Shown: positions 6,487 through 22,907 of the stretch, piece after piece
Numbering within the stretch: the first letter of the stretch is position 1
Layout of the letters: each line of letters begins with the position of its first letter
NCBI GenBank assembly: GCA_965248265.1
Contig: CBDFJF010000001.1
Location: 576,001 to 640,000, forward strand
Direction: 5' to 3'
DNA length: 64,000 nt
From: Candidatus Latescibacterota bacterium
GTDB lineage: Bacteria > Latescibacterota > UBA2968 > UBA8231
Notes under the pieces: model-generated
What the model was told of the DNA's origin: nothing
The model's database searches: none
Seen by the model: only the letters and a program-made list of their open reading frames with translations
Made by a program: the position numbers and the translations under genes

Positions 6487-6744
<258 letters not shown>

Positions 6745-6777: not shown

Positions 6778-7599
6778 CTAGTGATCGGGATGAGCGGCCA
6801 TGCTGATGAACAGTGCCGAGAGCAGAGTAAAAATGAAGGCTTGGATGAAACCGATGAAAATCTCAAGCATGTAGATGGCTGCTGCGAAGGCGATGGAAAA
6901 CGGGGCCAGATAATAGCTCTTGAGCATTATGATCAGACCCAGAAAAACCAGTATCGCCACGTGTCCGGCGATCATGTTGGCGAACAGACGGATGGCCAGG
7001 GCGAACGGCTTGGACAACAGGCCCATGATTTCGATCGGAATCATGATCGGCAACAGCCAGGTAGGCATTCCAGACGGCACCAGGCTGCGACAGTAGCCGA
7101 CGAATCCGTTGTTGACGATGCCGCTGACCTGAGTGACCGTGAAGGTACACAGGGCCAGCGCCGCGGTAACGCTGATGTTGCCCGTTGCCGTGGCACTGTA
7201 GGGAAACAGGCCGATCAGATTGCAAAACAGGATGAAGAAGAAAACGGTGAGCAGGTACGGCATGTATTTGCGGCCGTCCTCGCCCATGATCGGGAGCACT
7301 ACCTCGTCACGGATGAAAAGGACCATCGCCTCGAACAGGTTGGCCAGCCCGAAGGGCACGGCTTTGGGCCTGCGGAAGGCTACGGTCAACAGCAAAATCA
7401 GCAGGCTGCTGGCCACCCACATCATCAGGACGTGTTTCGAGATGGATAAATCGATGCCGTAGATTGGAGCGAACTGCGGCAAGTTGATGTGCCCGTCGAC
7501 CCAGTTGTGGGCGTTGACGAAGGGCACGTCCAGCTGCTTGGAATCGAGGATGTGCCCGATGATATCTACTTGACCGTCTGACCCTGCGTCACCCGCCAT
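6778..7599 (-). CDS. atpB: ATP synthase Fo a subunit
   Basis: KPFALAIRLFANMIAGH and IQAFIFTLLS; FCB-like N-terminal extension (IIGHILDS). Confidence 0.97.
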   Translation of the reverse strand: MAGDAGSDGQVDIIGHILDSKQLDVPFVNAHNWVDGHINLPQFAPIYGIDLSISKHVLMMWVASSLLILLLTVAFRRPKAVPFGLANLFEAMVLFIRDEVVLPIMGEDGRKYMPYLLTVFFFILFCNLIGLFPYSATATGNISVTAALALCTFTVTQVSGIVNNGFVGYCRSLVPSGMPTWLLPIMIPIEIMGLLSKPFALAIRLFANMIAGHVAILVFLGLIIMLKSYYLAPFSIAFAAAIYMLEIFIGFIQAFIFTLLSALFISMAAHPDH

Positions 7600-7630
7600 T
7601 CAATCACTCAGCCAATATCGTCAGTGTTAT

Positions 7631-7659
7631 CTATCAGTTGATCTTGCTATCAGTTGATC
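7631..7659. repeat. Direct repeat CTATCAGTTGATC x2 in the atpI-atpB spacer
   Basis: Identical 13-mers at 7631-7643 and 7647-7659. Confidence 0.75.
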
Positions 7660-7697
7660 CGGTAGACGACTGATCGTCACCTACCAAACGTTCAAAA

Positions 7698-8033
7698 TTA
7701 TGACGCTTGATTGCTCTGGTCAACCCGAGCAGGATCGATCGGCTGTCGCCTCTCGCGCTCGTTGCGGCGCACGACCGCTACGATCTCGACGATCATAGCC
7801 AGGATGCAGGTCGTCCCCAGGCCGGCGACGAAATAGCCCGGATGGATTGGCGTCACCAGGAGCAGGATGGCGGAGGCGGCCGCCATCAGCACCAGCCGGA
7901 GCGCCATGCCTCCCAGAAACACCTTGACGAAAAGTTGCGGCCGGCTGTTCCAGGTCCACCGGATACTCAACCAAGCTATGGCCCCGTTGACGAGCGCCAG
8001 CCCGATACCACAGGCCAACCCTGCCCATATCAT
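7698..8033 (-). CDS. AtpI-like membrane protein
   Basis: Hydrophobic protein with FLGGMALRLVL between atpZ and atpB. Start set at ATG 8033 (ATGA overlap). Confidence 0.8.
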   Translation of the reverse strand: MIWAGLACGIGLALVNGAIAWLSIRWTWNSRPQLFVKVFLGGMALRLVLMAAASAILLLVTPIHPGYFVAGLGTTCILAMIVEIVAVVRRNERERRQPIDPARVDQSNQAS

Positions 8034-8320
8034 TCTGTTTCCTCTCCTTTGGCTTGAGGGTCCTGGTTCGTCGCAGGCCCATCGCCGTCCTCGCTGTCTG
8101 GACGGGTCAGCATCCGGTAAAGATGGTAGAAGGCCGCCGTCGCCCCAAAGAGCATGCCGGCGATCAACAGTAAGGGAGATGTAGATAGCTTGTCGTCCAG
8201 CCACCATCCTCCGATGGTCGCGATGATGATGGTAACGGCAAACTGCAATCCCGCTCCCAGCAACAGGCCGGCCTGGGCCATGCCTGCCTGTTTCTTTGTC
8301 CGCTTGTCATCAGCGGTCAT
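8030..8320 (-). CDS. AtpZ/AtpI family protein
   Basis: Two TM helices with the GWWLDDKLSTSP motif; first gene of the atp cluster. Confidence 0.88.
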   Translation of the reverse strand: MTADDKRTKKQAGMAQAGLLLGAGLQFAVTIIIATIGGWWLDDKLSTSPLLLIAGMLFGATAAFYHLYRMLTRPDSEDGDGPATNQDPQAKGEETE

Positions 8321-8339
8321 GGCTGCTTACCACTATTCC

Positions 8340-9752
8340 TCACCAACCGATCAAGCCGGCCTGGCGAGCGGCACTTACCAATGGTTCTGACCACACACCA
8401 CCTCCTACCGAAAACAAGAGCATCAATACCAGGGCGGCGGCGAGTGGGGGGTCGACATGGACGGCCACCGACTCGCCAGCACCGGGAGGCGATAGTACTC
8501 GGACGATCAACCGCGCATACACGTAAGCCATCAGCAGACTGTTGATCAATATGCCTAGGGCGAGCCCGCCAAAGCCGGCATCCAACACCGAACTCAATAC
8601 CCAGTAGCGGGCAGTGAATCCCATCGTCGGCGGCACCCCGACCAGCGCCAGTAGCAGGACCAGCAGCGTCCCTGCCAGCAGTGGGTGTCTACGTGCCAGG
8701 CCCAGACAGTCGTCGATCTCCAGCTCCGTTTCCCGCTGACGGCAAAGCGCCAGCAGCACGGCGCAGCAACCACATACCGCCATGCCGTAAAAGGACAGAT
8801 AGAACACAACCCCGCCACCACCGCGACTGCCCATCGCGCAGAGCCCGGCCAGGGCGTAGCCGATATGAGCGAGTGAGGCGTAGCCCAGCAGGCGCTTTAG
8901 CCGGCGCTGATTCATCGCCAGCAGATTGCCCACCGTCATCGTCAACACGGCAGCAACCCAGGTCAAGGCGACCGCATACTCCTCGACCAGGTCGAAGCCG
9001 ACGGCGCACAGGCGCATCGCCACGGCAACGGCCGAAGCCGTGCCAGCGGAGGCCAGCAGCGCCGATACCGGTGCGGGCGCGCCATGAAAAACGTCGGCAA
9101 ACCACATGTGTAAAGGGACGACGCCGATGCGGGCGCCGACAGCAACCGCGAGCAGGGCCATTCCCGCCAGCGTCAACCGGCTCACGGTGACGTCCGTACC
9201 GTGATACGCGGCGACGAGTTCCGCCAGGTCGGTCGTACCGGTCGCCCCGTACACGAGGACAAGCCCGAGAAGGAAGAACGCACTGGCGACGGCTCCCGTC
9301 ATCGCCAATCGGAGACCGGCCTCCACGGCGATCCGGCTCGACTTCCCGCAGATGATGAGAGCCTGTAGGGACAGGACAGCCAGCTCGAGACTGACAAACA
9401 GCAGCAACAGGTCATTTGCGCGCACCATCACCATCATCCCCAGCACCGAACACAACAGCAGAGGATAAAACGCCAAGCCCGGGGAATCTGTGTCTGCGCC
9501 GCGGTGGCGAGAGAGAGACATGAGGATGGTCAAGCAGGCAAAGCTCAGGATCAGGACGGTGCAGTAGGAGTAAAATTCGGCGGCGAAGCTCTGTCTGAGC
9601 GCAACGGCGAGAATGGCGAGACTACCGAAAAGACTGGTATAGCCCATGCTTGCCGTCACCCTGGAGCCCAGCGACGTAAAGAAGGCTTCGAGCAGGACCA
9701 CGGCGACGATCAGAGCTGCCAGCAGTAGCTCCGGAGTTGAGAAGAAATCCAT
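8340..9752 (-). CDS. nuoN: NADH-quinone oxidoreductase subunit N-like (divergent)
   Basis: NDLLLLFVSLEL, VPLHMWFADVFHGAPAP, KRLLGYASLAHIGY. Start at ATG 9752 (TAATG overlap). Confidence 0.9.
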   Translation of the reverse strand: MDFFSTPELLLAALIVAVVLLEAFFTSLGSRVTASMGYTSLFGSLAILAVALRQSFAAEFYSYCTVLILSFACLTILMSLSRHRGADTDSPGLAFYPLLLCSVLGMMVMVRANDLLLLFVSLELAVLSLQALIICGKSSRIAVEAGLRLAMTGAVASAFFLLGLVLVYGATGTTDLAELVAAYHGTDVTVSRLTLAGMALLAVAVGARIGVVPLHMWFADVFHGAPAPVSALLASAGTASAVAVAMRLCAVGFDLVEEYAVALTWVAAVLTMTVGNLLAMNQRRLKRLLGYASLAHIGYALAGLCAMGSRGGGGVVFYLSFYGMAVCGCCAVLLALCRQRETELEIDDCLGLARRHPLLAGTLLVLLLALVGVPPTMGFTARYWVLSSVLDAGFGGLALGILINSLLMAYVYARLIVRVLSPPGAGESVAVHVDPPLAAALVLMLLFSVGGGVWSEPLVSAARQAGLIGW

Positions 9753-11362
9753 TAAGGATTCTCCTCGATATTGACTGGATGCTGAGTGCTGTCCGTAGTC
9801 GCCGGTGCCAGCGGAGGCGCCGACTCGTCGTTTCCAACTCTGATGACGGAATACCCGGTCGTCGGCAGCCAACCGGTGATGTGGTCGACGGCCGGTGCCG
9901 TAACCTGCACTAGTGGCGCAGGGTGGAGGCCCAGAAACAGAACCAGTCCCAGGATGGCTACCGCCATCCCGGTGAGCGCGCCCCTGGAGCCGCCGGCTCC
10001 AGTCGAGTCGGCCCCAGTTGTGGCGGACAGCAGGGTGTAGGCAGCGACTGACAACCCCAGGAGCGTTGCTACAGTGTGGCCTGGAAACGCCGCGAAGCCG
10101 GCGACCATGCACAGGATAGCTCCGCTGAACGGGGCCGATGCTGGAAAGCCGAGGAAGGCGACGACAGCACTCCACCACAGCAGCGCTTGCCATCGCCCGA
10201 TCCGCTCGCCGCCCGCGGCCAGAGAAACTGAGAGGGCAAGCGCAACCAACAGCGCCCGCACGAGACCGTGACTGAGAGCATACAGGAAACTGCCCTGGAT
10301 ACCCTCACCCGTGAGCGTCCACAGGCCCAGCAAAATGACTCCGTTGAAGCCCAGGCACAGGTAAGCCAGCCGGCGACGCAAGGAAGAGCGCTGCCCGAGA
10401 GCAAGAGCCCCACCGTACAGAGCAACCCAGGCGGCCAGTGCACCTCCCCAGTGAGCACCGATCTGCTCGACGGGTTCGGGACACAGTGGCATGGCAAACC
10501 GCAGTATCACGTAAGTGGCTATCAGGGGCCAGCCGCCAACGACCACGACCGCGACCAGCGGATTTTTCGTGCGTAGCGCCAATAGATCCACCAACCAACC
10601 ATGAAACGGCGCGATCGGCAGCTGGATGACCAGGTACAATCCGAAGGCGGCGGCGATCCACATCTGCGCCTCAGCGGGCAGCGCAAGCGTCAGCAACTGC
10701 TCTGGATCGAGTTGGGGGCTGCCTGTCTTTTGCTGAGCCGTCGAGCGCACCGACAGGGCTGCAGCCAACAGCGCCAGTGTGGCCGCGTAGTTAAAGAGGA
10801 GAAACCTCAATGCGACCCGGCGGCGCTCACTGCTGCGCACGCCACCCCCTGCCTCGTCATCCTTGGCCATACAAAGAGCGAAAAACAGAGCGAAAACGGC
10901 GGCCTGAGAGAACAGCGTCAGCAGCAGGAGGTTGGCCGCGACGAAGACGCCCTGGAGCGATGCCATAGCCACCAGCAATCCCATGCTTGCCCCCCTACCG
11001 CCGACGGAATTTGCTGACATGGCGATGAGAAACAGGAGTGGGATGACAACCAGCGCGAAGACATTGAGATGGTCGATCCCCAGCTGCAGGTCGAGGCCCA
11101 GTGAAGGCGCCCATGGTACGCTGCCGGCGACCCCCACGGCCTGCGATCCTGCTGATCCGAACAATTCAACGGTTGAGTGGAACTGTTCCGGTAGATCCAG
11201 GAAGTTGCCAACAGCCAGTAACCCTAACGCCAATTCCAGAAAGGTCACGGCCAGCAGGACCAGACGGCGGCCCTGCCCCGACGCGGGTGGCAGGAGAGCG
11301 ACAACGGCTGCGCCGATCAGAGGCACGACCACGAAACTCGACAGGATCAGGGCGGGCATCAT
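9752..11362 (-). CDS. nuoM: NADH-quinone oxidoreductase subunit M-like (highly divergent)
   Basis: PWAPSLGLDLQLGID, PIAPFHGWL, RRRLAY and ALSHGL; lies between nuoL and nuoN. Start at ATG 11362. Confidence 0.85.
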   Translation of the reverse strand: MMPALILSSFVVVPLIGAAVVALLPPASGQGRRLVLLAVTFLELALGLLAVGNFLDLPEQFHSTVELFGSAGSQAVGVAGSVPWAPSLGLDLQLGIDHLNVFALVVIPLLFLIAMSANSVGGRGASMGLLVAMASLQGVFVAANLLLLTLFSQAAVFALFFALCMAKDDEAGGGVRSSERRRVALRFLLFNYAATLALLAAALSVRSTAQQKTGSPQLDPEQLLTLALPAEAQMWIAAAFGLYLVIQLPIAPFHGWLVDLLALRTKNPLVAVVVVGGWPLIATYVILRFAMPLCPEPVEQIGAHWGGALAAWVALYGGALALGQRSSLRRRLAYLCLGFNGVILLGLWTLTGEGIQGSFLYALSHGLVRALLVALALSVSLAAGGERIGRWQALLWWSAVVAFLGFPASAPFSGAILCMVAGFAAFPGHTVATLLGLSVAAYTLLSATTGADSTGAGGSRGALTGMAVAILGLVLFLGLHPAPLVQVTAPAVDHITGWLPTTGYSVIRVGNDESAPPLAPATTDSTQHPVNIEENP

Positions 11363-13197
11363 CGGCTCGTCAACCACACAACAGCCACAAGAGTGATGGC
11401 AGCGCTCAGCACGGCGGCCGTGACGGCCGAGGAAAAACGGCCGTCGTGCAGGGTTCCGATCAACCAACCGCAGACGCGAACGCCTGCGCCGATCCCGCGC
11501 AGGCACAGCAACTCGACGGCCACATCGACGAACGTCGATACCCGGTCCGCCAACCAACAGACGGACCGCGCAATGGCCGTGTAGAGATCGTCGAACAGCA
11601 ATCCATTTCCTAGCAGATGCCTCAGGAGGTGCGGCGGACGGCCGGTGACACCCCTGGGGCTCGGTCTCAGGCGCCCCACCAGGACCCACGCCCATCCACA
11701 TCCGGCGAGCGTGAGCACGACGCAGGCGATTCCGACCGTGGACTCCACCAGCACCGCCGAGGGCATCGCGCCGACGTCAGCGAAAGCCCGCGGGATTGCA
11801 GCCGCCAGACGGATCGGAGAAGCCTGGTGACTGATTAACATCGCAATGACAGCAAGACCGGACAGACAGGCCATGAAGGCGACAGGAACTGTGGTCGAGC
11901 CCTCGCGGATCACAGTACGGGGATTGACACCCGTGAAAATGCCGAACAGCAGGCGGAAAAGGTGGAGGGAGGTAAGCAGCACGACCAGGCTTCCCAGAAT
12001 CGCGAAGGGAGTGCTCTCTGCCGCAGCTGCCTCCAGGAACGACAGCTGCACCCAGAAACTCGCGAACGGGGGCAACACCAACACGATGGTGGCTACCAGA
12101 GTGAACCGGTACGCCGTCTTCAAGTGGACCCGCAGACCACCAAGTGTGGACAGCTCAAAGGCCGCCGAACTCGCGCGCTCGGCCAGGCCGGTGGTGAGCA
12201 GGAGTACACATTTGACACAGGTATGAATCGACAACTGCAGCAATGCCACGGCCGGCATTCCCATGGACGCGAGGGTCAGGGCGATCGCGCCCTGGCTTGA
12301 GGTGGAATAGGCCAGCGACCGGCGGGGGTCGCGAGCGGCCGCGGCACAAGCCGCCATCAGCGCGGCACCGGCCAATCCAATGCCCGACAAACCTTCCGGA
12401 GACATCAGCTGCCAGGATCGAACCAGCAGGTAGAGACCGAGCGGGACCGCGAAGACGACCTGGATGAAGGTGGCTGCCGGCGTCCCTAACGACGCGCTTC
12501 GCTCCAACCAGGGATGCAACGGCCACATGCCAGTCCGGGCAATACCAGCCACCGCAATCGACAGGCCGATGACGGCAGTTGTCGAACCCCCCAAGACCTC
12601 CACGAAGGCGACGGAACCCAGGTGCAAGAGCATGAACACGAGCGCGCTCAGGAGTCCCAGCGAGGCGAGGCCCTGGAAGACCAAAGTCCGCGCCGCGGCC
12701 GGACCGTCGCCGCGCAAACGGACCAGCAGCCAGGTCGACAACGCGACTCCCTCCCAACCGGCATACAGCATACCGTAATTGTTGGCGATCACCGCCAAGA
12801 GTGCACAGGACACTCCGAAGTGGACGACGGCGTCCTGGCGGCGCTGCTGATGGAGTTCCTCAGTCTCAAATGCCGATTTGCATACATGGACCGCCAGGTT
12901 GGTCGAGGCCACGACGAAGGCTGTGATCGCGGACATTGGATCGATGAGAAAACCGGCCGTTATGACGGTGTCCTGCCCCAGGACGATCCAGGTCATGACA
13001 TCCCAGTTTGCTGTCACCGCTGTACCGCAGCTCAAGACCAGAAGCACCAGCGCACACAGCCAGGTGAGGGCGGCAGTATTGATACCACGCATGCGCAACG
13101 CGCCTGTAGATCGCGCGCCCGCTGTGGCGACGGCTCCTGCCAGTGGCGTGAGCAGAAGACCGTATGCGGCTATTTTCGTTAGCAGAACCAACTGCAT
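11359..13197 (-). CDS. nuoL: NADH-quinone oxidoreductase subunit L-like (divergent)
   Basis: GFLIDPMS, GWEGV, PLHPWL, LAYSTSSQ, IHTCVK and a C-terminal FDDLY lateral-helix region. Confidence 0.88.
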   Translation of the reverse strand: MQLVLLTKIAAYGLLLTPLAGAVATAGARSTGALRMRGINTAALTWLCALVLLVLSCGTAVTANWDVMTWIVLGQDTVITAGFLIDPMSAITAFVVASTNLAVHVCKSAFETEELHQQRRQDAVVHFGVSCALLAVIANNYGMLYAGWEGVALSTWLLVRLRGDGPAAARTLVFQGLASLGLLSALVFMLLHLGSVAFVEVLGGSTTAVIGLSIAVAGIARTGMWPLHPWLERSASLGTPAATFIQVVFAVPLGLYLLVRSWQLMSPEGLSGIGLAGAALMAACAAAARDPRRSLAYSTSSQGAIALTLASMGMPAVALLQLSIHTCVKCVLLLTTGLAERASSAAFELSTLGGLRVHLKTAYRFTLVATIVLVLPPFASFWVQLSFLEAAAAESTPFAILGSLVVLLTSLHLFRLLFGIFTGVNPRTVIREGSTTVPVAFMACLSGLAVIAMLISHQASPIRLAAAIPRAFADVGAMPSAVLVESTVGIACVVLTLAGCGWAWVLVGRLRPSPRGVTGRPPHLLRHLLGNGLLFDDLYTAIARSVCWLADRVSTFVDVAVELLCLRGIGAGVRVCGWLIGTLHDGRFSSAVTAAVLSAAITLVAVVWLTSR

Positions 13198-13509
13198 TTA
13201 GCCCTCGAACTCCGGCGATCGCTTGTCGAGATCGGTGTCACCACCGCGACGGTGGCGCAGGCACAGCAATGACAGCAGGACGACGGCTTGCCCTACACCG
13301 GCGGCCAACGTGATCAGGGCCATCACCTGGCCGGAATCGTCAGCATGAAAGTGTGCGAAGGCTGCGAGGGTGACGACGGCTCCCAACCCCATCAGCTGAA
13401 ACCCCAGGATGACGGCCAGAACGTTGCGCCGCAGGACGATGCCCGTTAGCCCGAGCCCGAACAGGAGCAAACCAAAAAGCGTAGTCACCTGCAGGATCGC
13501 CGCGCTCAT
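13198..13509 (-). CDS. nuoK: NADH-quinone oxidoreductase subunit K-like
   Basis: LFGLGLTGIVLRRN and GQVM motifs; both conserved Glu appear as Gln. Confidence 0.9.
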   Translation of the reverse strand: MSAAILQVTTLFGLLLFGLGLTGIVLRRNVLAVILGFQLMGLGAVVTLAAFAHFHADDSGQVMALITLAAGVGQAVVLLSLLCLRHRRGGDTDLDKRSPEFEG

Positions 13510-14093
13510 GGACCCTCCCCGGTACTGGCAGGATCATCTACCCGATTGGATTCGACAATCGCCAGCGTGGTGGCGAAAAGGACGAAGCCGATGACGATGA
13601 ATGACACCAAGTGTCTCCTCACCAGTAGACCGGTGAGTGACTCGCTATCGGCAACCACGCCATCGGCGACGATGGCGGCAGTGGTCTCCCCTTGGACGGC
13701 GACCGTTGGAGCTATCCCTGGAGTCGCCGCAATGACACCGAGCGCGACTACCAGGATTGCGGCCGCGCACAAGATCAGCCTTCGCCTCTTGGAATCCGAG
13801 GCGGCTCGCGGACCTTGCCGCGAGTGTCCCACGAGCGGAGTGCCCGATTCTTCTTGATTGACAACCATGTGACCTACGAGATAGACGGCGGCGATGACAC
13901 CACCCTGCATCAGGACTAGCCCGATGGCAACCAGTGGCGCATTCGCGAAGATCCCCACGATGCCGGCTGCGGCCAGGACCACCACGCCGAGAGCGAGAGC
14001 AGACCGAGTCACCGATCGACTGGTGGCGACGACGACGGCGGCGGCCACGGCGAGTGCTGCCAGTAACACGTACAGGACCAGACCGGAGATCAC
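13506..14093 (-). CDS. nuoJ: NADH-quinone oxidoreductase subunit J-like
   Basis: Multi-TM protein between nuoH and nuoK. GTG start at 14093 overlaps the nuoH stop (GTGA). Confidence 0.8.
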   Translation of the reverse strand: MISGLVLYVLLAALAVAAAVVVATSRSVTRSALALGVVVLAAAGIVGIFANAPLVAIGLVLMQGGVIAAVYLVGHMVVNQEESGTPLVGHSRQGPRAASDSKRRRLILCAAAILVVALGVIAATPGIAPTVAVQGETTAAIVADGVVADSESLTGLLVRRHLVSFIVIGFVLFATTLAIVESNRVDDPASTGEGP

Positions 14094-15115
14094 GCGTTTG
14101 TCATCATTTTCAGGAGCCGCGAACCGACCGCTACCATCAGCAGATTGGCAAAAGCCAGCGGCAGCAGGTATTTCCAGCCGACGGTGGCTGCGCGCTCGAG
14201 TACCAGCGACGGCAGGCTCGAACGGACCCAGAGAAACAGCAGGACGACAGCGGCGGTTTTGATGACGGTTGCGCTGGCCTGCACATGCGGCACTTCCCCG
14301 TTGCCGACGAGTCCGGGAATGTGCCACCCCCCCAGGTACAGGGTGACGAGGAAGGCGCTGGCGGCTATCAGATGCACCCGCTCCGCCACCAGCATCAAGG
14401 CCAAGTGGCGGCCGCTGTAGAGGCTGCCGAGGCGGCCGCCTCTGGTCGGGTCTCGCTGGGTGAGTGGACGCCAGGGGATAATCTGCAGGAGGGCGGCGAA
14501 GCAGACGACGAAACCCAACGGTTGAACCATCAGGTTCCAGGCGAGGATGACGTGTCCGTCGATCGCTGTCTGGGCGGCGATGATCTGGTCAAAACGAGCT
14601 GTTCCGCCGGCCGTTATGACTCCGAAAACGGCGACCCCGAGCGCCAGGTAACAGCTCAGCTGGCGCGCCACCAGACGCAGTCCTCCGAAATCACGAAAGC
14701 CTCCTATTTGAGCGCGGGTTCCGGCGATCAGACCAACCTGGAGAGCGATGAAGCCCAGGGCCATGACGTAGACGACCCCCAGGCTGGTGTGCCCTCCCCA
14801 CGCCGCCAGCGCTGTCCAGAGCCCACCACCATCACTCTGGCAAAACGGAACCACGGCGAGGGCGGTGAACGAAATGGCCAACAACAGAGGGGCGGCCCAC
14901 TTGCCGCCAGCTCCAGCCGCGGCCCGTGGCGATCTCTTTGACGCCAGCTTGATCAGATCGGCTACGGGGCGCAATCCGAAACCCGCCCGCTGGCGCCTGC
15001 CCGGCGCGGTCCGGTACTCAGCGAGCATGATCGCCATGACTCCGATCGCCGTACATAACAGCAGCGCGCCGTTGGAGCCCAGCGCGTTGATGAGTGGAAG
15101 GTCCTGGAAGGCCAA
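14090..15115 (-). CDS. nuoH: NADH-quinone oxidoreductase subunit H-like (divergent)
   Basis: PVADLIKL, GGLR, YSG, LYLGGW, WVRSSLP, GWKYLLPL. The TTG start at 15115 is approximate. Confidence 0.87.
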   Translation of the reverse strand: MAFQDLPLINALGSNGALLLCTAIGVMAIMLAEYRTAPGRRQRAGFGLRPVADLIKLASKRSPRAAAGAGGKWAAPLLLAISFTALAVVPFCQSDGGGLWTALAAWGGHTSLGVVYVMALGFIALQVGLIAGTRAQIGGFRDFGGLRLVARQLSCYLALGVAVFGVITAGGTARFDQIIAAQTAIDGHVILAWNLMVQPLGFVVCFAALLQIIPWRPLTQRDPTRGGRLGSLYSGRHLALMLVAERVHLIAASAFLVTLYLGGWHIPGLVGNGEVPHVQASATVIKTAAVVLLFLWVRSSLPSLVLERAATVGWKYLLPLAFANLLMVAVGSRLLKMMTNA

Positions 15116-15116
15116 T

Positions 15117-16796
15117 TCAGTCGGTATCCGCCGGCCGCTGTCTCGACAGCCAGTCTCGTTTGTTGTGATCGTCAACGGCCAGAAAACCACGTCGTTGCAG
15201 AGCGGTGGACCATCCACCGCCGTAGGCCTGTGCGATACCTGCCGCACCGAGCCCCGCACCCGGGTCCCCCTGATTCTGATCGAGGACAGTCTCGGCTTCC
15301 GCTATGACGGAGTTCGGCGCCGCGAATCGAACCGCCACTCGTTTGAGAATCTCGATATCGTCCAGGCACCCGGGAGCGGGTCCAACGGCCTTTTGCAACC
15401 GCTGAAGGTGCCCGTCGGCGTTGGTCATGGTACCGGCTTTTTCTGGGAAACTGCATCCTGGCAGCACGACCCGCGCCAGGGCGGCCAGTTCGTCCTGCAG
15501 GATATCCAGGACGACCAGATTGTCGGCAACAGCACCCAGGGCGCTGAGCTCGATGTCGTCCGGCCGAACGCCCGGTCCCCCACCCACAACGAAGGCCGCA
15601 CCGATCAATCCCTCCTGCAGTGCTTCCACCATCTGATCCATCCCCAGCAAACTCTGGCCCAGCTCTGCCGCCACCCCTTTGATGCCATGCGAATTCGCCG
15701 CCTTGTCGCCTCGAATCGTGAATCCACTCGGGTAGATCGTGTCGCCTTCCGTAGCGAGGGACTGCCGCAAGGATATCAATTCGGTGTCCCAGCCTTGAGC
15801 AAGGCGAATCAACAGACGGGCTTCCTCGTTCGTCATCTGGCCGCCGAGTATGACTCCGATCTGCTGTCCCTGAGAGCGGCAGGCGGTAAAAGCGAGATGA
15901 ATGGCCTCGCACGCGTCCTCCCAAGATGCGACAACGTCTGCAACGCCATCAGCTGACTGGATCAGGGGATGCGTCAACCGCTCCGAACTGTGGACGTAGT
16001 GCCATCCGTGACGTCCATCATCGCACATCCAGTACTCGTTGACATCCATGTTCACGCGGGGCTTGAGTCTCTTCACCTGATCGCCGGCAACATCGATGCG
16101 GATGTTGCATCCGGAGGAACAGCCGGTGCAGATCGAGTCGACACCGCGCAATCTCCAGGCCGGCTGCAGCTGGAAACGCTTGTCGATCAGAGCACCGGCC
16201 GGACACAGATCCACGGTGTTGCCGGACAGCCGATTGTCCATCTTTGACCCGGGAAAGGTAGCGACTTCGAGGCGGTCACCTCGATCGAACATCGACAGCT
16301 CTTCCGTACCGGTGACCTCCGCGCAGAAACGGACGCAACGGGTACAATGGATGCATTTCCCCGGGTCTATGGCAACGTGATCTCCCAGATCCCGAATTTC
16401 ACTCGCGCCCTTTTCGGGAAGCACGTATGGACCGTCGCCGCCGTAGGCGAAGCTGAATTCCTGTAACTCGCACTCTCCCGAATTGTCGCACGATGGACAT
16501 TCCAATGGGTGCCGCACCAGCTGGAACTCAAGCGCTGTAGCTCGCGCCTGCCTTACGGCCTCCGATTCCGTGCGCACCACCATGCTGTCCTGTACCTGCG
16601 CATCGCACGCCGTCGTCAAACGCCAGCCGTCGTCGTCTCGCACCTCTATCGCACATAGCCGACACAGTGCCGGAGTAGACAGGGCCGGATGAAAACACAG
16701 ATGGGGGACGAAAATTTCAGCCTCGAGAGCGCCCATGAGCAGATTGGCCCCGTCCTCGATCTCCAGCGCTCTGCCGTCCCATGTTATTCGGGCCAT
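15117..16796 (-). CDS. nuoG: NADH-quinone oxidoreductase subunit G-like (short form)
   Basis: Motifs for N1b (LCFHP...CRLC...TAC), N5 (HPLECPSCDNSGEC), N4 (CIHCTRC...CP) and N7 (CTGCSSGC...C). Confidence 0.93.
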   Translation of the reverse strand: MARITWDGRALEIEDGANLLMGALEAEIFVPHLCFHPALSTPALCRLCAIEVRDDDGWRLTTACDAQVQDSMVVRTESEAVRQARATALEFQLVRHPLECPSCDNSGECELQEFSFAYGGDGPYVLPEKGASEIRDLGDHVAIDPGKCIHCTRCVRFCAEVTGTEELSMFDRGDRLEVATFPGSKMDNRLSGNTVDLCPAGALIDKRFQLQPAWRLRGVDSICTGCSSGCNIRIDVAGDQVKRLKPRVNMDVNEYWMCDDGRHGWHYVHSSERLTHPLIQSADGVADVVASWEDACEAIHLAFTACRSQGQQIGVILGGQMTNEEARLLIRLAQGWDTELISLRQSLATEGDTIYPSGFTIRGDKAANSHGIKGVAAELGQSLLGMDQMVEALQEGLIGAAFVVGGGPGVRPDDIELSALGAVADNLVVLDILQDELAALARVVLPGCSFPEKAGTMTNADGHLQRLQKAVGPAPGCLDDIEILKRVAVRFAAPNSVIAEAETVLDQNQGDPGAGLGAAGIAQAYGGGWSTALQRRGFLAVDDHNKRDWLSRQRPADTD

Positions 16797-16797
16797 G

Positions 16798-18156
16798 TTA
16801 GTAACGCACGCTTACGCTATCCGGCACCCTGAACCCGGGGTCTTTCAGCTCCTGCATTGGGCAGGCTCCTGCCGTAGCGTGCGCCTCGAATTCGGCTCTG
16901 AACGAATGGAAGAAATCCTGCACGGTCCAAGCGAAGGCGCTACCGAATCCACACAGCGCCGTGGTCTGCTCAGGCCGGAGCCGGGGGGCGATCTGACGCG
17001 CCACGGATTCGATCAGCTTCACCTCGTCGGCGTCACCCCCCTTACCCTCCTCCAGTCGTTGCAGCAACTGGAGGATCCAACTCGAGCCCTCCCTGCACGG
17101 CGCGCACTGCCCGCACGATTCCACCGCATAGAAGCGCATCATCTGGATCGCCGTGTCCACCATGCAGGTGGTATCATCCAGGACGATGACCGCGCCGTTG
17201 CCGAAGGCTCCATCGATCGGTCCTGCGCCGGGTATCGCCCATTGTTGGGGGTCGAGATCGACATCGAGCTGCTGTGGCTGCAGAACCGTCGACAGTGTGC
17301 CACCGACGATGACCGCCTTGAGCGAGCGACCATCGGGTACACCACCGGCGTAGTCGTCTACCAACTCCCTCAGCGTCGCCTCGCCCAAAGCCAGTTCGTA
17401 CAAACCTGGACGACGCACGTGCCCGCTGACACAAAACACGCACGTACCTGGATAGGCATGCGTGCCGATGGTCCTGAACTCGACCGCACCGGCTGACAGA
17501 ATGTCAGGTAGATAGGCCAGGGTGCCGACGTTGTGGACAACGGCCGGCTCGCCAAAGAGGGTGCGTGGGGACGACGCCGGTGCCGGCTCAGGTCGTCCCC
17601 CTTCGAGCCCCTGTAGCAAGGCCGATTCCTCGGCGGCAATATGGGCACCACCCCCTGGATGCACGTAGACATCCAGGTCGAAACCACTGCCGGCAATATC
17701 ACGCCCCAGCCAGTTGGCTTTGTAGGCCTCGTCTATTGCCTGGTTGATGACGGTGGTTGGACGGGCAAGTTCACCTCTCACGCATAGATAGGCGACCCGT
17801 GCGCCAAGAGCTCGGGCGGCGATGAGTATACCTTCGAGAAGGCGATGAGGTACGCGCTCCATGAGCTTGCGGTCACGAAACAGACCCGGATCGGCATCGT
17901 AGGCATTGACACACAGGTAGGGCGGCGGTGCCGACGTCATCGCCGGCTGCGCCGACCGCCGCCACTTATCCGCGACCGGCTCCCAACCGCCGCCACGACC
18001 GCGCAGACCACTGGCGGCGACTTCCTCCAGCAGCTGCTGTTGGGTCATGGCCAACGCCTTGGCCGCTCCCCGATAGCCGCCGTGGGTGAGGTAGGCCTGG
18101 ATGCCCTCGATGTCGGGGATCTCGATATTCTTGAGGAGCAGTCTGTGCTCAGCCAT
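16798..18156 (-). CDS. nuoF: NADH-quinone oxidoreductase subunit F-like (remodelled nucleotide site)
   Basis: SGLRGRGG, PHRLLEG, SGHVRRPGLYE and the N3 motif ESCGQCAPCREG...LCGFG. Confidence 0.93.
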   Translation of the reverse strand: MAEHRLLLKNIEIPDIEGIQAYLTHGGYRGAAKALAMTQQQLLEEVAASGLRGRGGGWEPVADKWRRSAQPAMTSAPPPYLCVNAYDADPGLFRDRKLMERVPHRLLEGILIAARALGARVAYLCVRGELARPTTVINQAIDEAYKANWLGRDIAGSGFDLDVYVHPGGGAHIAAEESALLQGLEGGRPEPAPASSPRTLFGEPAVVHNVGTLAYLPDILSAGAVEFRTIGTHAYPGTCVFCVSGHVRRPGLYELALGEATLRELVDDYAGGVPDGRSLKAVIVGGTLSTVLQPQQLDVDLDPQQWAIPGAGPIDGAFGNGAVIVLDDTTCMVDTAIQMMRFYAVESCGQCAPCREGSSWILQLLQRLEEGKGGDADEVKLIESVARQIAPRLRPEQTTALCGFGSAFAWTVQDFFHSFRAEFEAHATAGACPMQELKDPGFRVPDSVSVRY

Positions 18157-18160
18157 GGCC

Positions 18161-18667
18161 TCAGTCCTCGATACGCTCTACGGTACGCTCTAGTAATTGA
18201 GTCAGTTTCTCGAGACTCAGGCTTTCATGCAGCTCGTCGTCTACGAGCATCACCGGAGCCGTGCTGCAGGATGCCAGACACGGAACACGTTCGAGGGTGA
18301 AATGGCCGTCCAGGGCCGTGTCCCCCGGCTCAATGCCGAGCGCGACACGCAGTTGGCCCAGAACCGTTTCAGCACCCATCAAGCGGCAGGAGAGGCCATC
18401 GCACACCCGCAGCCGGCTTCTACCAGCCGGCTTGTCAGTCCTCAGCAGGGGATAGAAACTGGCCACGCCGGCAGCTCGAACTGGAGGTATTGCCAACAGG
18501 TCGGCCACGTGGCCGATCACAGACGGTGAGCACCAGCCCCACTCTCGCTGTGCCAGCAGCAGGACCGGAAGAAGCGCACCGCCAGCCTCGGGATAGCGCT
18601 CCCGGATGCGCTGGTACTCGGCCTCCGTGTCCGGACCGAAAGCCAATTTGTCGATGGTCTGCTCCAT
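18161..18667 (-). CDS. nuoE: NADH-quinone oxidoreductase subunit E-like
   Basis: GVASFY and the 2Fe-2S motif CDGLSC...CLASC. Start at ATG 18667 (TGATG overlap). Confidence 0.93.
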   Translation of the reverse strand: MEQTIDKLAFGPDTEAEYQRIRERYPEAGGALLPVLLLAQREWGWCSPSVIGHVADLLAIPPVRAAGVASFYPLLRTDKPAGRSRLRVCDGLSCRLMGAETVLGQLRVALGIEPGDTALDGHFTLERVPCLASCSTAPVMLVDDELHESLSLEKLTQLLERTVERIED

Positions 18668-20319
18668 CACCGGTCCATCTCCGCAGGCACCACATTGAGA
18701 CTGCACAGAGCCTGGCGCGCTTGTGCCATCGGCAGATCGGCGACCAGGCCTCCGGCGACCTGAAAGTTCAACAACGAAGGCGAGCGCAGGTGGAGCCGGT
18801 AGGGCCGGTCGGTGCCGTCTGCGCACAAGAACACGCCGAGCTCGCCATTCGGACTCTCGGTCGCTTGGTAACACTGGGCGCCCGCCGGCAGGCGAAGGCC
18901 ATGCCCCTCCGTCCACAACTGCATGTGGCGGATCATTACCTCCACGCGTTCGCGCACTTGCTCGGACGTGCCCGGAAAAACGCGGGCGTCCTCGGTGCGC
19001 CAGGCACCGGTCGGCATCGACCGCAAAGCCCGTTCGATGAGGCCGGTACTCTCCACCATCTCCTCCATGCGCACCCGGCAGCGATCCAGCGCGTCGCCGT
19101 TCGAGCCAACGGGCACCTCGAAATCCAGCTCGCCATACGCCAGGTACGGCGTCGTCTTGCGCAGATCCGACTCCGTGCCGCAGGCACGCTGGACCGGACC
19201 ACTCAAACCCCATTCGGCGGCTTCATGGGCGCTCAGCGCTGCCACTCCGTCGACCAGGTCACGCCACAGGCGATTGCCCATGAGCTGCTTGTGCAACCGT
19301 GCCACCGCAACTCGTATCGACCGCGACAAGGCCAGCGCGCAGTTCATGAAATCATCCGGAAAATCGGCTGCCTGTCCCCCGATAGCCAGTAATCCGGTAC
19401 CGGTACCCACACCTCTCAACCGACCCATCGTCTCCAGTACTGCAGCACGCAGCTGCATGGCTTGTCGCCAAACTCTGTCGGCGCCGGCCGTCTCGGTTTG
19501 GATCGACAGCCAAGCCAGGTGTCCCGCGAGGCGGGAAAGCTCGGCGATGACGACACGCTGAAAGTTGCCTCTCGGTGGCACCTCGATTCCCAGCATCGCC
19601 TCGACCGCCAGTGCGAGGGTCAAGCTGGCGGCGTGAGGGGACTGGTCGTTCAGGCGTTCGCACACAACCATGTTCTGTATACAAGTCAACGACTCGGAGA
19701 GCTTCTCGATGCCACTGTGGGCAAATCCAGGCACCGGAGCAGCACGCACCACCCGGCCGGCCACCACCTCGAGGCGCATGCGCAGTGTCGGTATCGGCGC
19801 GACCAGAGCCGCGGTGTCCGGGCCAGTTGGCACAGGATTACCGGTTTCGCCCTCACCGAGCAAGGGATAGCGCTTGCGCAGCGGGTGAACGGAGGAGGGG
19901 GAGTGCAGGATCAGGGCTCGGGTCGTGGATCTGCCGGTAAAGCGGACCCCGAACATCTCCGCCACCTCACGCTCCTGCCAGTCTGCGCCCGGAAACAGAT
20001 CGGTGACGCTGGCCAGCGTGGTTTCTTCTGGATCGAAATCAGCACTCAATTGCAAACACGCAAAGGGTGTCTGGACTGACCGCAACTGGTAGACTATCCG
20101 CAGAGGCGCCGCCTCACCGGCGAGAGCGGACAGATCGACTGCAGTCATATCTGCGAGGGTGTAGCTTCCGTCCGTCCTCAGCGAGGTGAGCACCTCGTGC
20201 ACGGCATCCGCTTCCAGTACCAGCAATGTGCGTCCAGCAACTTCACGGATCTCGGCCGTCGGAAAGTTGACATGCAAGGTGGACAGCACGGTGTCGGCCT
20301 CGGCGAGTGTTTCAGCCAT
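18667..20319 (-). CDS. nuoCD: Fused NuoC/NuoD-like protein (quinone site degenerate)
   Basis: NuoC part WQEREVAEMFG...HPLRK. NuoD part GFAHSGIEK, GLSGPVQRA, ESPNGELG, RSPS and C-terminal EMDR. Start at ATG 20319. Confidence 0.9.
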   Translation of the reverse strand: MAETLAEADTVLSTLHVNFPTAEIREVAGRTLLVLEADAVHEVLTSLRTDGSYTLADMTAVDLSALAGEAAPLRIVYQLRSVQTPFACLQLSADFDPEETTLASVTDLFPGADWQEREVAEMFGVRFTGRSTTRALILHSPSSVHPLRKRYPLLGEGETGNPVPTGPDTAALVAPIPTLRMRLEVVAGRVVRAAPVPGFAHSGIEKLSESLTCIQNMVVCERLNDQSPHAASLTLALAVEAMLGIEVPPRGNFQRVVIAELSRLAGHLAWLSIQTETAGADRVWRQAMQLRAAVLETMGRLRGVGTGTGLLAIGGQAADFPDDFMNCALALSRSIRVAVARLHKQLMGNRLWRDLVDGVAALSAHEAAEWGLSGPVQRACGTESDLRKTTPYLAYGELDFEVPVGSNGDALDRCRVRMEEMVESTGLIERALRSMPTGAWRTEDARVFPGTSEQVRERVEVMIRHMQLWTEGHGLRLPAGAQCYQATESPNGELGVFLCADGTDRPYRLHLRSPSLLNFQVAGGLVADLPMAQARQALCSLNVVPAEMDR

Positions 20320-20713
20320 CGGAATCCGTGACGGGCGAGCGCTCTTCCCAGTCGAAGGCCCGTCGACGGGCAGCGTACACGAAGGCGCAGAGCAGGACGA
20401 TGATGAAAACGGCAACGACACCGAGCACGGCCGCATCACCATCCAGCAACTGATTGAACCCGAGAGCCCATGGCAACAGCAGGACGAGCCCTGCTTGAAA
20501 AACCGCTGCGATGAGCGCGATTCGGTAGAAGGGCAGGATTTGAGCCGGTGTGGACTGCGTTTGAGAGTCCCGCGCGGACGCCGTGTCATCGGCTCTATCG
20601 CGGCTGAGCAAGCGTGCCCCGAACAAGAAAGCCGCCGCAAACAGAAGGATTGCGACGGCTGAGATCACGGCAGCTGGAATTTCGATTGCGACCTCGTAGG
20701 CGGGAAGAGCCAC
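20312..20713 (-). CDS. nuoA: NADH-quinone oxidoreductase subunit A-like
   Basis: Three TM helices, FYRIAL...LLPWA and a C-terminal RRAFDW; first gene of the nuo cluster. Confidence 0.82.
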   Translation of the reverse strand: MALPAYEVAIEIPAAVISAVAILLFAAAFLFGARLLSRDRADDTASARDSQTQSTPAQILPFYRIALIAAVFQAGLVLLLPWALGFNQLLDGDAAVLGVVAVFIIVLLCAFVYAARRRAFDWEERSPVTDSDG

Positions 20714-21060: not shown

Positions 21061-22299
21061 CTAACCGAAGTCGTCGAAGCGGATCATCTCTTCTTCCACT
21101 CCGAGCTCGTCCAGCATGTTCATCACTGCTTGCAGCATCATCGGTGGACCGCACAGATAGTACTCGATGTCTTCCGGAGCCGCGTGGGAGCTCAGATAGT
21201 GGTCGAGGACGACCTGGTGAATGAAACCCTGGTACCCGGTCCAGTTGTCTTCTGGCAGAGGCTCCGACATGGCCACATGCCACGAGAAGTTCGGGAACTC
21301 CTCGGCGATAGCCTCGAAGTGGTCCTCGTAGAACAATTCCTTGGAGGATCGAGCCCCGTACCAATACGACACCTTGCGACCGGTCCTCAAGGTGTGGAAC
21401 AGGTGAAAAATGTGCGACCGCAACGGTGCCATGCCAGCGCCGCCACCGATGTAGACCATCTCGCGCTCGGTTTCCTGGATGAAGAACTCCCCGTAGGGAC
21501 CGGAAATGGTAGCCTTGTCTCCAGCCTTCAGATTGAACACGAAGGAAGACACGATGCCGGGGTTGACCTTCATCCAGCCGCCGATGCTCGGATCGAATGG
21601 CGGCGTGGCGATACGGATGTTGAGCATGACGATGTTGCCCTCGGCCGGGTGATTCGCCATCGAGTAGGCACGAAAAACCGTATCGGCGTTCACCGTTCGC
21701 AGATCCCACACCTTGAAACGGTCCCAGTCGCCGTGAAAACGCTCGTCGACTTCGAAATCCCTGAAGGAGCACTGGAAGGACGGTACTTCTATTTGGATGA
21801 AGCCGCCGGATTCGAAATTCAGGTTCTCGCCTTCTGGTAATTTGAGGACGAGTTCCTTGATAAAGGTTGCGACGTTCTTATTGGAGATGACCTCGCATTC
21901 CCAGCGTTTGACCGAGAACACCTCGGGCGGCACTTCGATCTTCAAGCTCTCCTTGACGGCGACCTGACATGAGAGCCGATCCCCTTCGCGGGCTTCACGC
22001 TTGGTGATCTGTTCCAGCTCCGTGGCCAGAATCTCACCGCCCCCCTCGTGTATCTTCACGACACACTGGCCACAGGTACCGCCCCCACCGCATGCCGATG
22101 AAACGAAAAGCTGGTTATCTGCCAGCACGTTGAGCAGCTTGCCGCCCGCTGGCGTGGTCAGGGTGCGTTCATCGTTGATGACGATCTCGACGTCGCCGCT
22201 GGCAACCAGCTTGGAACGGGCTGCCAGGATGACGCCCACCAGCGCCAGCACGACCATCGTGAACATGCCGACACCGGCGGTTATTTCCACGGCCATCAT
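21061..22299 (-). CDS. nqrF: Na+-translocating NADH:quinone reductase subunit F
   Basis: [42 protein letters not shown] and a C-terminal DDFG. Confidence 0.98.
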
Positions 22300-22907
22300 A
22301 GTTGAATACCCGAGAAGGCCATGAAGGCCATCGCCATCAGGCCAACGGTCATGAAGGTAATCCCCAGACCCCGCAGGCCGGGGGGAACGTCACTGTAGCG
22401 CATCTTCTCGCGGATACCTGCCAACGCCACGAGGGCGAGGGCCCAACCGATGCCCGACCCCAGGCCGTAGACGACGCTCTCTCCGAAGTCGTAGTCGCGT
22501 TCCACCATGAACAGCGATCCACCCAGGATGGCGCAGTTGACGGTGATCAAGGGCAGAAAAATGCCCAACGCGTTGTAGAGCTTGGGAACGTACTTGTCCA
22601 GGAACATCTCGAGAATCTGGACGCTGGCCGCGATAACGCCGATGTAGCTGATGAGACCGACGAAGGTCAGGTCGACCCCTTCCAGGCCCAGCCATACCAG
22701 CGCGTTTTCTTTGAGCAGATAGTTGTAGACGAGGTTGTTGATCGGCACGGTCAGTGTCTGTACCACGATTACAGCCACACCGAGCCCGAAGGCGGTGGAA
22801 ACTCGCTTGGAAATGGCCAGGAAGGTGCACATGCCCAGGAAGAAGGCGAGGGCGATGTTCTCGACGAAGATCGCCTTGACGAAGAGATTCAGATAGGCCT
22901 CAAACAT
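22296..22907 (-). CDS. nqrE: Na+-NQR subunit E
   Basis: [29 protein letters not shown]. Confidence 0.97.

Follow-up and report, generated by a model that had tools for sequence, protein, structure and literature searches.

The window analysed here, a 64,000-nucleotide stretch of the genome of a Candidatus Latescibacterota bacterium, carries a divergent set of genes for complex I, one of the most conserved bioenergetic machines. We call this set nuo*. Its cluster, nuoA-CD-E-F-G-H-J-K-L-M-N, is packed on the minus strand at 8340-20713, and the 11 genes encode 12 subunits (C and D are fused); the two remaining subunits, NuoB and NuoI, are apparently supplied in trans by lone genes elsewhere in the same genome. 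The reading that we favour, to which we give a probability of roughly six in ten, is that nuo* would specify an assembled, redox-wired derivative of complex I that does not pump protons and receives two of its iron-sulfur (Fe-S) subunits from distant loci.

Genes in the window were called from an open reading frame (ORF) listing combined with Pfam and NCBIfam scans. Neither NuoB- nor NuoI-like sequence was detected between the cluster genes by these means, and the junctions are tight: the nuoA stop overlaps the start of nuoCD (ATGGCTGA at 20312-20319), and the nuoH stop overlaps the start of nuoJ (GTGA at 14090-14093). An earlier note on this DNA had reported both the absence of nuoB and nuoI from the cluster and the overlapping junctions, and the gene listing and the junction letters agree with it. 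All cluster subunits score far under the NCBIfam equivalog cut-offs (293 versus 360 bits for NuoD, 102 versus 305 for NuoH); the cluster is thus a strongly divergent one, and chance does not account for the pattern. The genes are, in the order of transcription:

20312..20713, minus strand: nuoA*, 133 amino acids (aa); Pfam PF00507, E 2e-9
18667..20319, minus strand: nuoCD* fusion, 550 aa; Pfam PF00329 and PF00346
18161..18667, minus strand: nuoE*, 168 aa; PF01257
16798..18156, minus strand: nuoF*, 452 aa
15117..16796, minus strand: nuoG*, 559 aa
14090..15115, minus strand: nuoH*, 341 aa; a TTG start at 15115 is assumed
13506..14093, minus strand: nuoJ*, 195 aa; its GTG start overlaps the nuoH stop
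13198..13509, minus strand: nuoK*, 103 aa
11359..13197, minus strand: nuoL*, 612 aa
9752..11362, minus strand: nuoM*, 536 aa
8340..9752, minus strand: nuoN*, 470 aa

Searches by gene family in the genome of the window (7.3 Mb in 2 contigs) located both missing genes, each on the contig that does not carry the nuo* cluster. The lone nuoB-like gene (142 aa, G000:C2:3819245-3819673) comes after dnaK, dnaJ and the gene of an Mrp/NUBPL-type Fe-S carrier ATPase and before prmA, and the lone nuoI-like gene (144 aa, G000:C2:3326499-3326933) lies between the RNase Y gene (rny) and dxr. The cluster-binding cysteines are intact in both products, as CC...C...CP in NuoB and as two CxxCxxCxxxCP motifs in NuoI, in this genome and in 8 others for each gene. 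With the cluster genes, the lone nuoB and the lone nuoI, all 14 complex I core subunits are encoded. The same genome also contains a canonical 11-subunit operon, nuoABCDHIJKLMN without nuoEFG (C1:251973-261630), with its own nuoB and nuoI and intact catalytic residues. We also observed that the Mrp/NUBPL-type ATPase gene and the lone nuoB overlap by 1 nucleotide (G000:C2:3818214-3819673), a pairing found in 8 of 8 other genomes; the eukaryotic homologue of this carrier is a complex I assembly factor.

The three loci are present or absent together across the order, whose 76 genomes form one family with 18 genera (denoted by handles such as g5) and were searched with NuoCD, the lone NuoB and the lone NuoI. 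A nuo*-type NuoCD was found in 20 of the 76 genomes, 12 of them verified by locus annotation and 8 assigned by similarity only. An unlinked NuoI is present in all 20, and a lone NuoB, taken as a match not beside NuoD, in 19; the exception, G021, is 83% complete. Conversely, lone genes without a detected cluster occur in G009 (84% complete) and G070 (76%). Elsewhere among the genomes without nuo*, the placeable NuoB matches adjoin NuoC/NuoD or a NuoD-like match on the same contig; weak partial NuoB matches (G059:C19 and G061:C130) and weak NuoI-like matches (G029 and G055) were set aside from this placement.

The positions of the lone genes are fixed. In the 8 other genomes whose neighbourhoods were fetched for each gene (from g5, g12, g17 and g18), nuoB always lies in the order dnaJ-mrp-nuoB-prmA-rsmE and nuoI in the order rSAM-rny-nuoI-dxr. 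In four complete genomes that lack nuo*, none of the three sites is occupied: dnaJ-mrp-prmA, rny-dxr and nqrF-atpZ, the last flanking the cluster in nuo* genomes, are directly adjacent, with an nqrF-atpZ gap of ~350-630 bp. Two of these four belong to g12, a genus that also has cluster carriers. In genus g5, including the single-contig genome G007, there is no other complex I, and the unlinked lone genes are the only nuoB and nuoI.

A complex between NuoD (residues 165-550) and the lone NuoB was predicted with a score of 0.80, the best control reaching 0.00; the runs for this pair share at least 90% of contacts, and the partner pLDDT (predicted local distance difference test) is at least 77. 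Of 157 solved complexes, 116 reach this mark, as do 2 of 215 mismatched pairs. Since NuoB and NuoD are a textbook pair, however, the high score may only show a resemblance to complexes already solved. Mirror-tree identities over 7 genomes (21 pairs) gave a Pearson correlation of 0.94 and a Spearman correlation of 0.71 for NuoCD against the lone NuoB, and 0.62 and 0.02 for NuoCD against the lone NuoI. We rejected these correlations as evidence of co-evolution, as within-genus pairs dominate them and shared descent explains them.

These findings bear on the main claim of the earlier note, namely that the quinone module (clusters N2 and N6a/b) had been removed, a claim that cognate nuoB and nuoI elsewhere in the genome, co-evolving with the cluster, together with measurable NADH:quinone activity were said to refute. 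On the genomic side, such genes were found by the whole-genome search, with all cluster cysteines kept, and the claim is untenable because they co-occur with the cluster at fixed loci. A complex truly without NuoB and NuoI, in which electrons would stop in NuoG and a new acceptor would use the freed surface of NuoCD, is hence hardly credible. In its favour, the window's cluster and 11 related ones lack both genes, and the NuoD quinone-site residues are lost. Against it, the lone genes have intact Fe-S motifs, keep their fixed loci, track the cluster across the 76 genomes and are the sole copies in g5; moreover, clusters of other phyla that lack nuoB and nuoI are fully canonical, NuoB is encoded elsewhere in the genome of one Latescibacterota cluster of this type (L073, see below), and the NuoD-lone NuoB prediction scored 0.80 against 0.00.

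The same distribution speaks to the relation between nuo* and the canonical 11-subunit operon. We considered nuo* as a supplier of NuoEFG for the 11-subunit complex of the genome, and found this unsupported as a main role, because genomes of g5 and g12 carry nuo* but not the 11-subunit operon; it may still be a side function. For the same reason, nuo* does not depend on that operon. In one relative, the 11-subunit operon itself has 4 L/M/N-type genes instead of 3 (L047, G002:C100:14000-33000).

The residues that distinguish nuo* from other complexes I begin with the quinone site of NuoD, where His, Tyr and Asp residues contact the quinone headgroup. NuoD was compared with solved complex I chains (phmmer), in a 19-sequence alignment (18 homologues) and in a second alignment with the related clusters. 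The alignment with solved structures starts only at residue 178, past the first loop; in the multiple alignments, the loop before Leu179 is TGPDTAALVAPIPT opposite the canonical GPQHPxxHG, and both His are gone. Further along, ERLND pairs with DRLDY (Tyr to Asp) and TETAGA with SMDVGA, the xxDxGA motif (Asp to Thr). In NuoA, aligned with 8 canonical NuoA sequences, the YECG of the loop between transmembrane helices (TM) 1 and 2 and the acidic pair of TM2 are absent. The losses reported by the earlier note in the NuoD quinone site and in the NuoA loop are therefore seen again in the alignments with solved chains and homologues. Within the family the loss is graded: g4 and g5 retain the Tyr and one His, whereas in g12, g17, g18 and the window's lineage the NuoD His, Tyr and Asp are all lost, and most members have Asp or Glu at the Tyr position.

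The earlier note had also pointed to two non-canonical cysteines beside this site. The motif, TCIQNMVVC, is present in NuoD, but its conservation in orthologues did not hold up: among the relatives examined, the window shares the first Cys with P0001 alone, and the second with its four close relatives (P0001-P0004) and no others. We thus rejected a new metal or redox site at this motif, which is not conserved past the closest relatives. Nickel-iron (NiFe) sites are held by paired Cys motifs at the N and C termini of the large subunit; these were not found in NuoD, which ends ...VPAEMDR without Cys and whose sole cysteines in the vicinity are the poorly conserved pair of TCIQNMVVC.

The loss of catalytic residues spreads past NuoD and NuoA to NuoH, NuoK, NuoJ, NuoL, NuoM, NuoN and NuoF. 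The canonical reference consisted of 8 operons of the same order, of the 11- and 14-subunit types (7 for NuoM and NuoN; L012, L025 and L043-L048). For NuoH, NuoA, NuoJ and NuoK we counted the charged, Tyr and Cys positions invariant in this canon, and for NuoM and NuoN the invariant Lys, Arg, Glu, Asp and His. NuoH keeps 10 of 23 such positions and has nothing left of the acidic cluster in its TM5-6 loop; here PLTQRDPTRGGRLG..SLYSG aligns with the TM5-6 loop stretch of Escherichia coli NuoH (solved chain). One of 3 invariant positions is kept in each of NuoA, NuoJ and NuoK: the conserved Tyr of NuoJ is Gln, and so are both membrane Glu of NuoK (Q38 and Q74 versus E. coli E36 and E72 in 3rko_K). 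In the antiporter-like subunits, NuoL has Arg for the TM7 Lys, Gln for the TM8 His and Gln for the TM12 Lys, with the TM5 Glu kept; NuoM keeps 4 of 12 positions, with TM5 Glu changed to Gln and TM12 Glu to Ala; and NuoN keeps 9 of 18, with Arg for the TM7 Lys (R208), Thr for the TM8 Lys (T238) and Arg for the TM12 Lys (R382), all three aligning with Lys in 8e9g_N and 8qby_N, and with the TM5 Glu kept. Helix labels, and the functional weight given to these residues, follow the complex I literature. Fewer columns are invariant in nuo* than in the canonical set: 10 versus 61 in NuoH, 16 versus 83 in NuoM, 35 versus 78 in NuoN and 10 versus 30 in NuoL. No alternative conserved charged network was found in the nuo* membrane subunits, where there are only a few newly conserved Trp and Arg positions. 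Plus-strand AT skew over these membrane-subunit genes (window 8000-14000) is strongly positive, up to 0.34 in 2-kb windows, in agreement with T-rich codons for hydrophobic residues on the minus strand, which is the coding one.

It is at this point that a working, energy-converting oxidoreductase of reduced nicotinamide adenine dinucleotide (NADH) and (mena)quinone, that is, a complex I isozyme with unconventional residues, has to be weighed. Its 13 genes are intact and under purifying selection, the membrane subunits included, no Fe-S ligand is missing, and wherever the cluster was examined it has the nqr operon on one side and the atp operon on the other. The Asp or Glu at the Tyr position in most members could also be read in its favour, as could the Tyr and one His that g4 and g5 keep. 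We nevertheless consider it unlikely: the NuoD triad, the NuoH acids, the NuoA loop, the NuoK Glu and the TM7, TM8 and TM12 residues of NuoL, NuoM and NuoN are lost together, no compensating charged set replaces them, and the drop in invariant columns is steep (10 versus 61 in NuoH, 16 versus 83 in NuoM).

The Fe-S wire, by contrast with the quinone, coupling and pump residues, is kept. In the window, NuoE retains 4 of 4 cysteines (2Fe-2S), NuoF 4 of 4 (4Fe-4S) and NuoG all 15 that are invariant in the canon, and the 11 related clusters also have these NuoE, NuoF and NuoG cysteines, a single cell being replaced in the whole comparison. The assignment of individual cysteines to the named clusters (N1a, N3, N1b, N4, N5, N6a/b and N2) follows that of canonical complex I.

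The nucleotide pocket of NuoF is altered. The motif RGRGGAGFPTGxKW reads RGRGGGWEPVADKW, with AGFPTG changed to GWEPVA; NNVE(T/S) reads HNVGT, GAGAYICGEET reads GGGAHIAAEES, and ADESEPG reads AYDADPG (NAYDADPG in the window), while RGRGG, DKW and the EE pair are kept. The motif changes are also seen against solved chains. The altered loop is conserved within the lineage and the subunit is strongly constrained, which suggests that a ligand may still be bound.

A pseudoenzyme with a structural or regulatory role, for example a partner or scaffold for Nqr or ATP synthase or an element of membrane organisation whose Fe-S clusters would serve folding only, could account for the remodelling of both the NuoF pocket and the NuoD site and for the conserved nqr-nuo*-atp arrangement. 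The Lys to Arg changes in the membrane arm would suit it as well, as they retain charge and not proton transfer, and the complex is dispensable, with no nuo*-type NuoCD match in 28 of 31 g12 genomes. Such a role is improbable in our estimation, however, given that NuoF is the most constrained subunit (dN/dS, the ratio of non-synonymous to synonymous substitution rates, of 0.04-0.09) and that almost no member has lost any of the ~30 Fe-S ligands. Strong constraint of this kind, on NuoF as on the Fe-S ligands, speaks for a redox function that is still in place.

The nuo* genes are under purifying selection. In comparisons by the Nei-Gojobori method with metagenome relatives of the window's own lineage, namely L049 (92% NuoG identity), L050 and L051 (76-79%), dN/dS was 0.04-0.08 for NuoF, 0.13-0.19 for NuoG, 0.17-0.30 for NuoH and 0.25-0.30 for NuoJ. 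Pairs within g5, g12 and g17 gave values of 0.08-0.37 over all subunits, with saturated synonymous rates (dS).

The cluster architecture is shared by the relatives. We annotated 11 related clusters with blastp and jackhmmer, and all 11 show the order (A-)CD-E-F-G-H-J-K-L-M-N with no nuoB or nuoI, although NuoJ, NuoK and NuoA in g17 and g18, and also NuoH in g17, are too divergent to detect. The suggestion of the earlier note that the architecture is old and fixed gains weight from this, the gene order being identical in the 11 clusters, from 5 other genera. In one of them, G072 of g18, nuoF and nuoG form a single frame of 1,199 codons (L018 10679-14278), which may be a fusion or a lost stop.

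Selection and architecture together bear on the view that nuo* is a decaying relic, a set of non-functional genes being lost after Nqr took over. The patchy distribution with whole-cluster losses, the long branches, the split frames in G006 and G024 and the higher dN/dS in g18 (both described below) could be taken as signs of decay. Yet reading frames remain open in 12 clusters of 6 genera, although NuoCD identity between these genera is only 34-42%; start and stop codons overlap in the window, dN/dS is 0.04-0.30 in the window's lineage, and genomes that retain the cluster also retain the lone nuoB and nuoI. We regard decay as a very remote explanation.

The reading of nuo* as an assembled, redox-wired complex without proton pumping can be set out as follows. 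The 13 proteins would probably assemble into a complex-I-shaped membrane complex, in which the chain of Fe-S clusters would be intact from NuoF to N2. Residues for quinone binding and protonation are lost (the NuoD His, Tyr and Asp and the NuoH and NuoA loops), as are those that relay the signal to the membrane arm (the NuoJ Tyr and the two NuoK Glu) and the proton-moving residues (the Lys/Glu/His axis of NuoL, NuoM and NuoN, with several Lys to Arg changes). The nucleotide pocket of NuoF is remodelled, and the complex presumably kept by selection beside the nqr and atp operons. Its electrons may serve an uncoupled quinone reduction or go to another acceptor, or the complex may have a structural or regulatory role beside Nqr and ATP synthase; as to the acceptor, the simplest guess is a weakly bound quinone that would take its protons from the Asp or Glu replacing Tyr.

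A bolder version, which we put forward tentatively and at clearly less than even odds, is that nuo* may represent a functional class new among complex I descendants, with the full Fe-S wire and neither quinone chemistry nor pumping. The remodelled nucleotide site would then feed electrons to an acceptor other than quinone, or the complex might be a redox-sensing or structural partner of Na+-NQR and ATP synthase, with the losses arising stepwise from g4/g5 to g12 and then to g1/g17/g18.

Several points weigh against the favoured reading. That the proteins assemble, conduct electrons and do not pump is deduced from sequence alone, and the essentiality of the residues concerned is taken from mutagenesis in E. 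coli, Thermus and Yarrowia. The NuoD Tyr and one His are kept in g4 and g5, so that some members may still reduce quinone. Purifying selection acts on ~1,600 residues of the antiporter-like subunits, which a mere anchoring role would hardly explain; residue checks may be blind to some activity of the membrane arm. The estimates of selection themselves have limits: dS is saturated (>1.3) in most between-genome pairs, and g18 pairs gave dN/dS values of 0.28-1.15, which may point to relaxed constraint in that genus but are unreliable because the stop-to-stop frames used include non-coding extensions. Finally, nuoCD in G006 (C1:70224-71815) and nuoH in G024 (L022 7633-8986) are each split into two overlapping frames, which could be local frameshift decay or assembly error; G024 has ambiguous bases.

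The cluster is flanked in the window by two energy-converting systems on the same strand:

21061..22907, minus strand: nqrF and nqrE, with which the Na+-NQR operon ends; upstream neighbour
6778..8320, minus strand: atpZ-like gene, atpI and atpB, which open the F-type ATP synthase operon; downstream neighbour (Pfam PF09527, PF03899 and PF00119)

In 12 of 12 clusters examined, nuo* sits in a single block with the nqrA-F genes and the F-type ATP synthase operon, all in the same orientation (window 1-27000 for the block described here). Searches with the window's flanking proteins (tblastn) placed the nuo* cluster directly after nqrF in all 11 related clusters, and the atp operon follows in the 10 whose locus extends past nuoN. 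In the ATP synthase c subunit (window 6487-6708, minus strand, 73 aa), the carboxylate stands in the context ALVEGVA, in which neither Ser nor Thr follows the Glu. Judged by the Na+-binding signature, this context presumably indicates a proton-coupled rather than a sodium-coupled rotor, despite the adjacent Na+-NQR.

To place nuo* among other complexes I, we built a tree of NuoF alone (FastTree, LG+gamma, 25 sequences, midpoint rooting). Outgroups came from a contig scan with the NuoCD alignment, a generic pattern that returned mostly canonical fused NuoCD of other phyla; one of the clusters so found, L090, was left out of the tree on account of its partial NuoF match. The 12 nuo* NuoF sequences are monophyletic (support 0.999), and their sister is the Latescibacterota cluster L073 (0.997). 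The nuo* branches are longer, with mean distances to non-family taxa of 1.7-2.9 against 1.0-1.4 among those taxa.

Three clusters outside the family, L073, L071 (Calditrichaceae) and L090 (an uncultured Planctomycetia metagenome-assembled genome), share the order A-C/D-E-F-G-H-J-K-L-M without nuoB and nuoI. All three are canonical in NuoD, NuoH, NuoK, NuoA, NuoL and NuoM, apart from an Asp motif left unmatched in L090, and the NuoF motifs are canonical in L073 and L071; in the NuoF of L090, the pattern search matched only VNNVETL. In the L073 genome, the NuoB genes lie 1.46 Mb from the cluster. Because these sister clusters without nuoB and nuoI keep canonical residues, the unlinking of nuoB and nuoI preceded the other changes and does not preclude a normal enzyme. 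Catalytic residues were lost later, in an event specific to the family carrying nuo*. In line with this, a scan of the phylum (168 genomes, 93 of them outside the family) found full-length fused NuoCD outside the family only in G120 and G148, both with the canonical triad.

Compared with canonical complex I (E. coli NuoA-N, Thermus thermophilus Nqo1-14), nuo* has the same 14 core subunits, the usual gene order and the Fe-S ligands, but its nuoB and nuoI are unlinked, its quinone, coupling and pump residues are replaced and its NuoF motifs are altered. Dispersed core genes have precedents. In Nitrospina gracilis, the NUO-2 genes are split as nuoACHIJKLMN, nuoEGD, nuoB and nuoF (PMC3578206). NUO-2 resembles nuo* in having nuoB away from the main cluster and altered cofactor-binding patterns in NuoF, and differs from it in the extra Fe-S clusters of NuoG and NuoF and in the way the genes are split (PMC3578206). 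'Split' and 'NUO14minus' classes of nuo genes have been described by Degli Esposti 2015 (PMC4758237). As with nuo*, the dispersed core genes of such split sets are taken as one enzyme in both sources (PMC3578206, PMC4758237). The passages covered make no mention, for NUO-2 or for the 'split' and 'NUO14minus' classes, of a loss of quinone-site, E-channel or pump residues. Nor did we find a complex I lineage with these combined losses described in the parts of the full-text literature covered, which included passages of PMC11588811 and PMC4453560.

Within our own data, the B/I-less clusters L073, L071 and L090 match nuo* in gene order and differ in that their catalytic residues are canonical. 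The 11-subunit NDH-1-type complex I, which co-exists with nuo* in the window's genome, has homologues of the membrane arm and of the quinone module; unlike nuo*, it has nuoB and nuoI in cis, canonical residues and no NuoEFG, whereas nuo* has nuoE, nuoF and nuoG.

The quinone-site Tyr and His, the NuoK Glu and the antiporter Lys are, to our knowledge, treated as close to universal in complex I. In nuo*, a whole enzyme of ~4,000 residues with ~30 Fe-S ligands is under selection after the replacement of nearly all those residues. For annotation, this means that the mrp-prmA and rny-dxr loci should be checked before nuo clusters without nuoB and nuoI are scored as incomplete, and that the label 'NADH-quinone oxidoreductase' on nuo* genes probably overstates their function. 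The intermediate stages in sister genera, together with the canonical sister cluster, provide a natural experiment that sets what assembly needs apart from what catalysis needs, and point to a possible non-respiratory or uncoupled role for the complex I scaffold.

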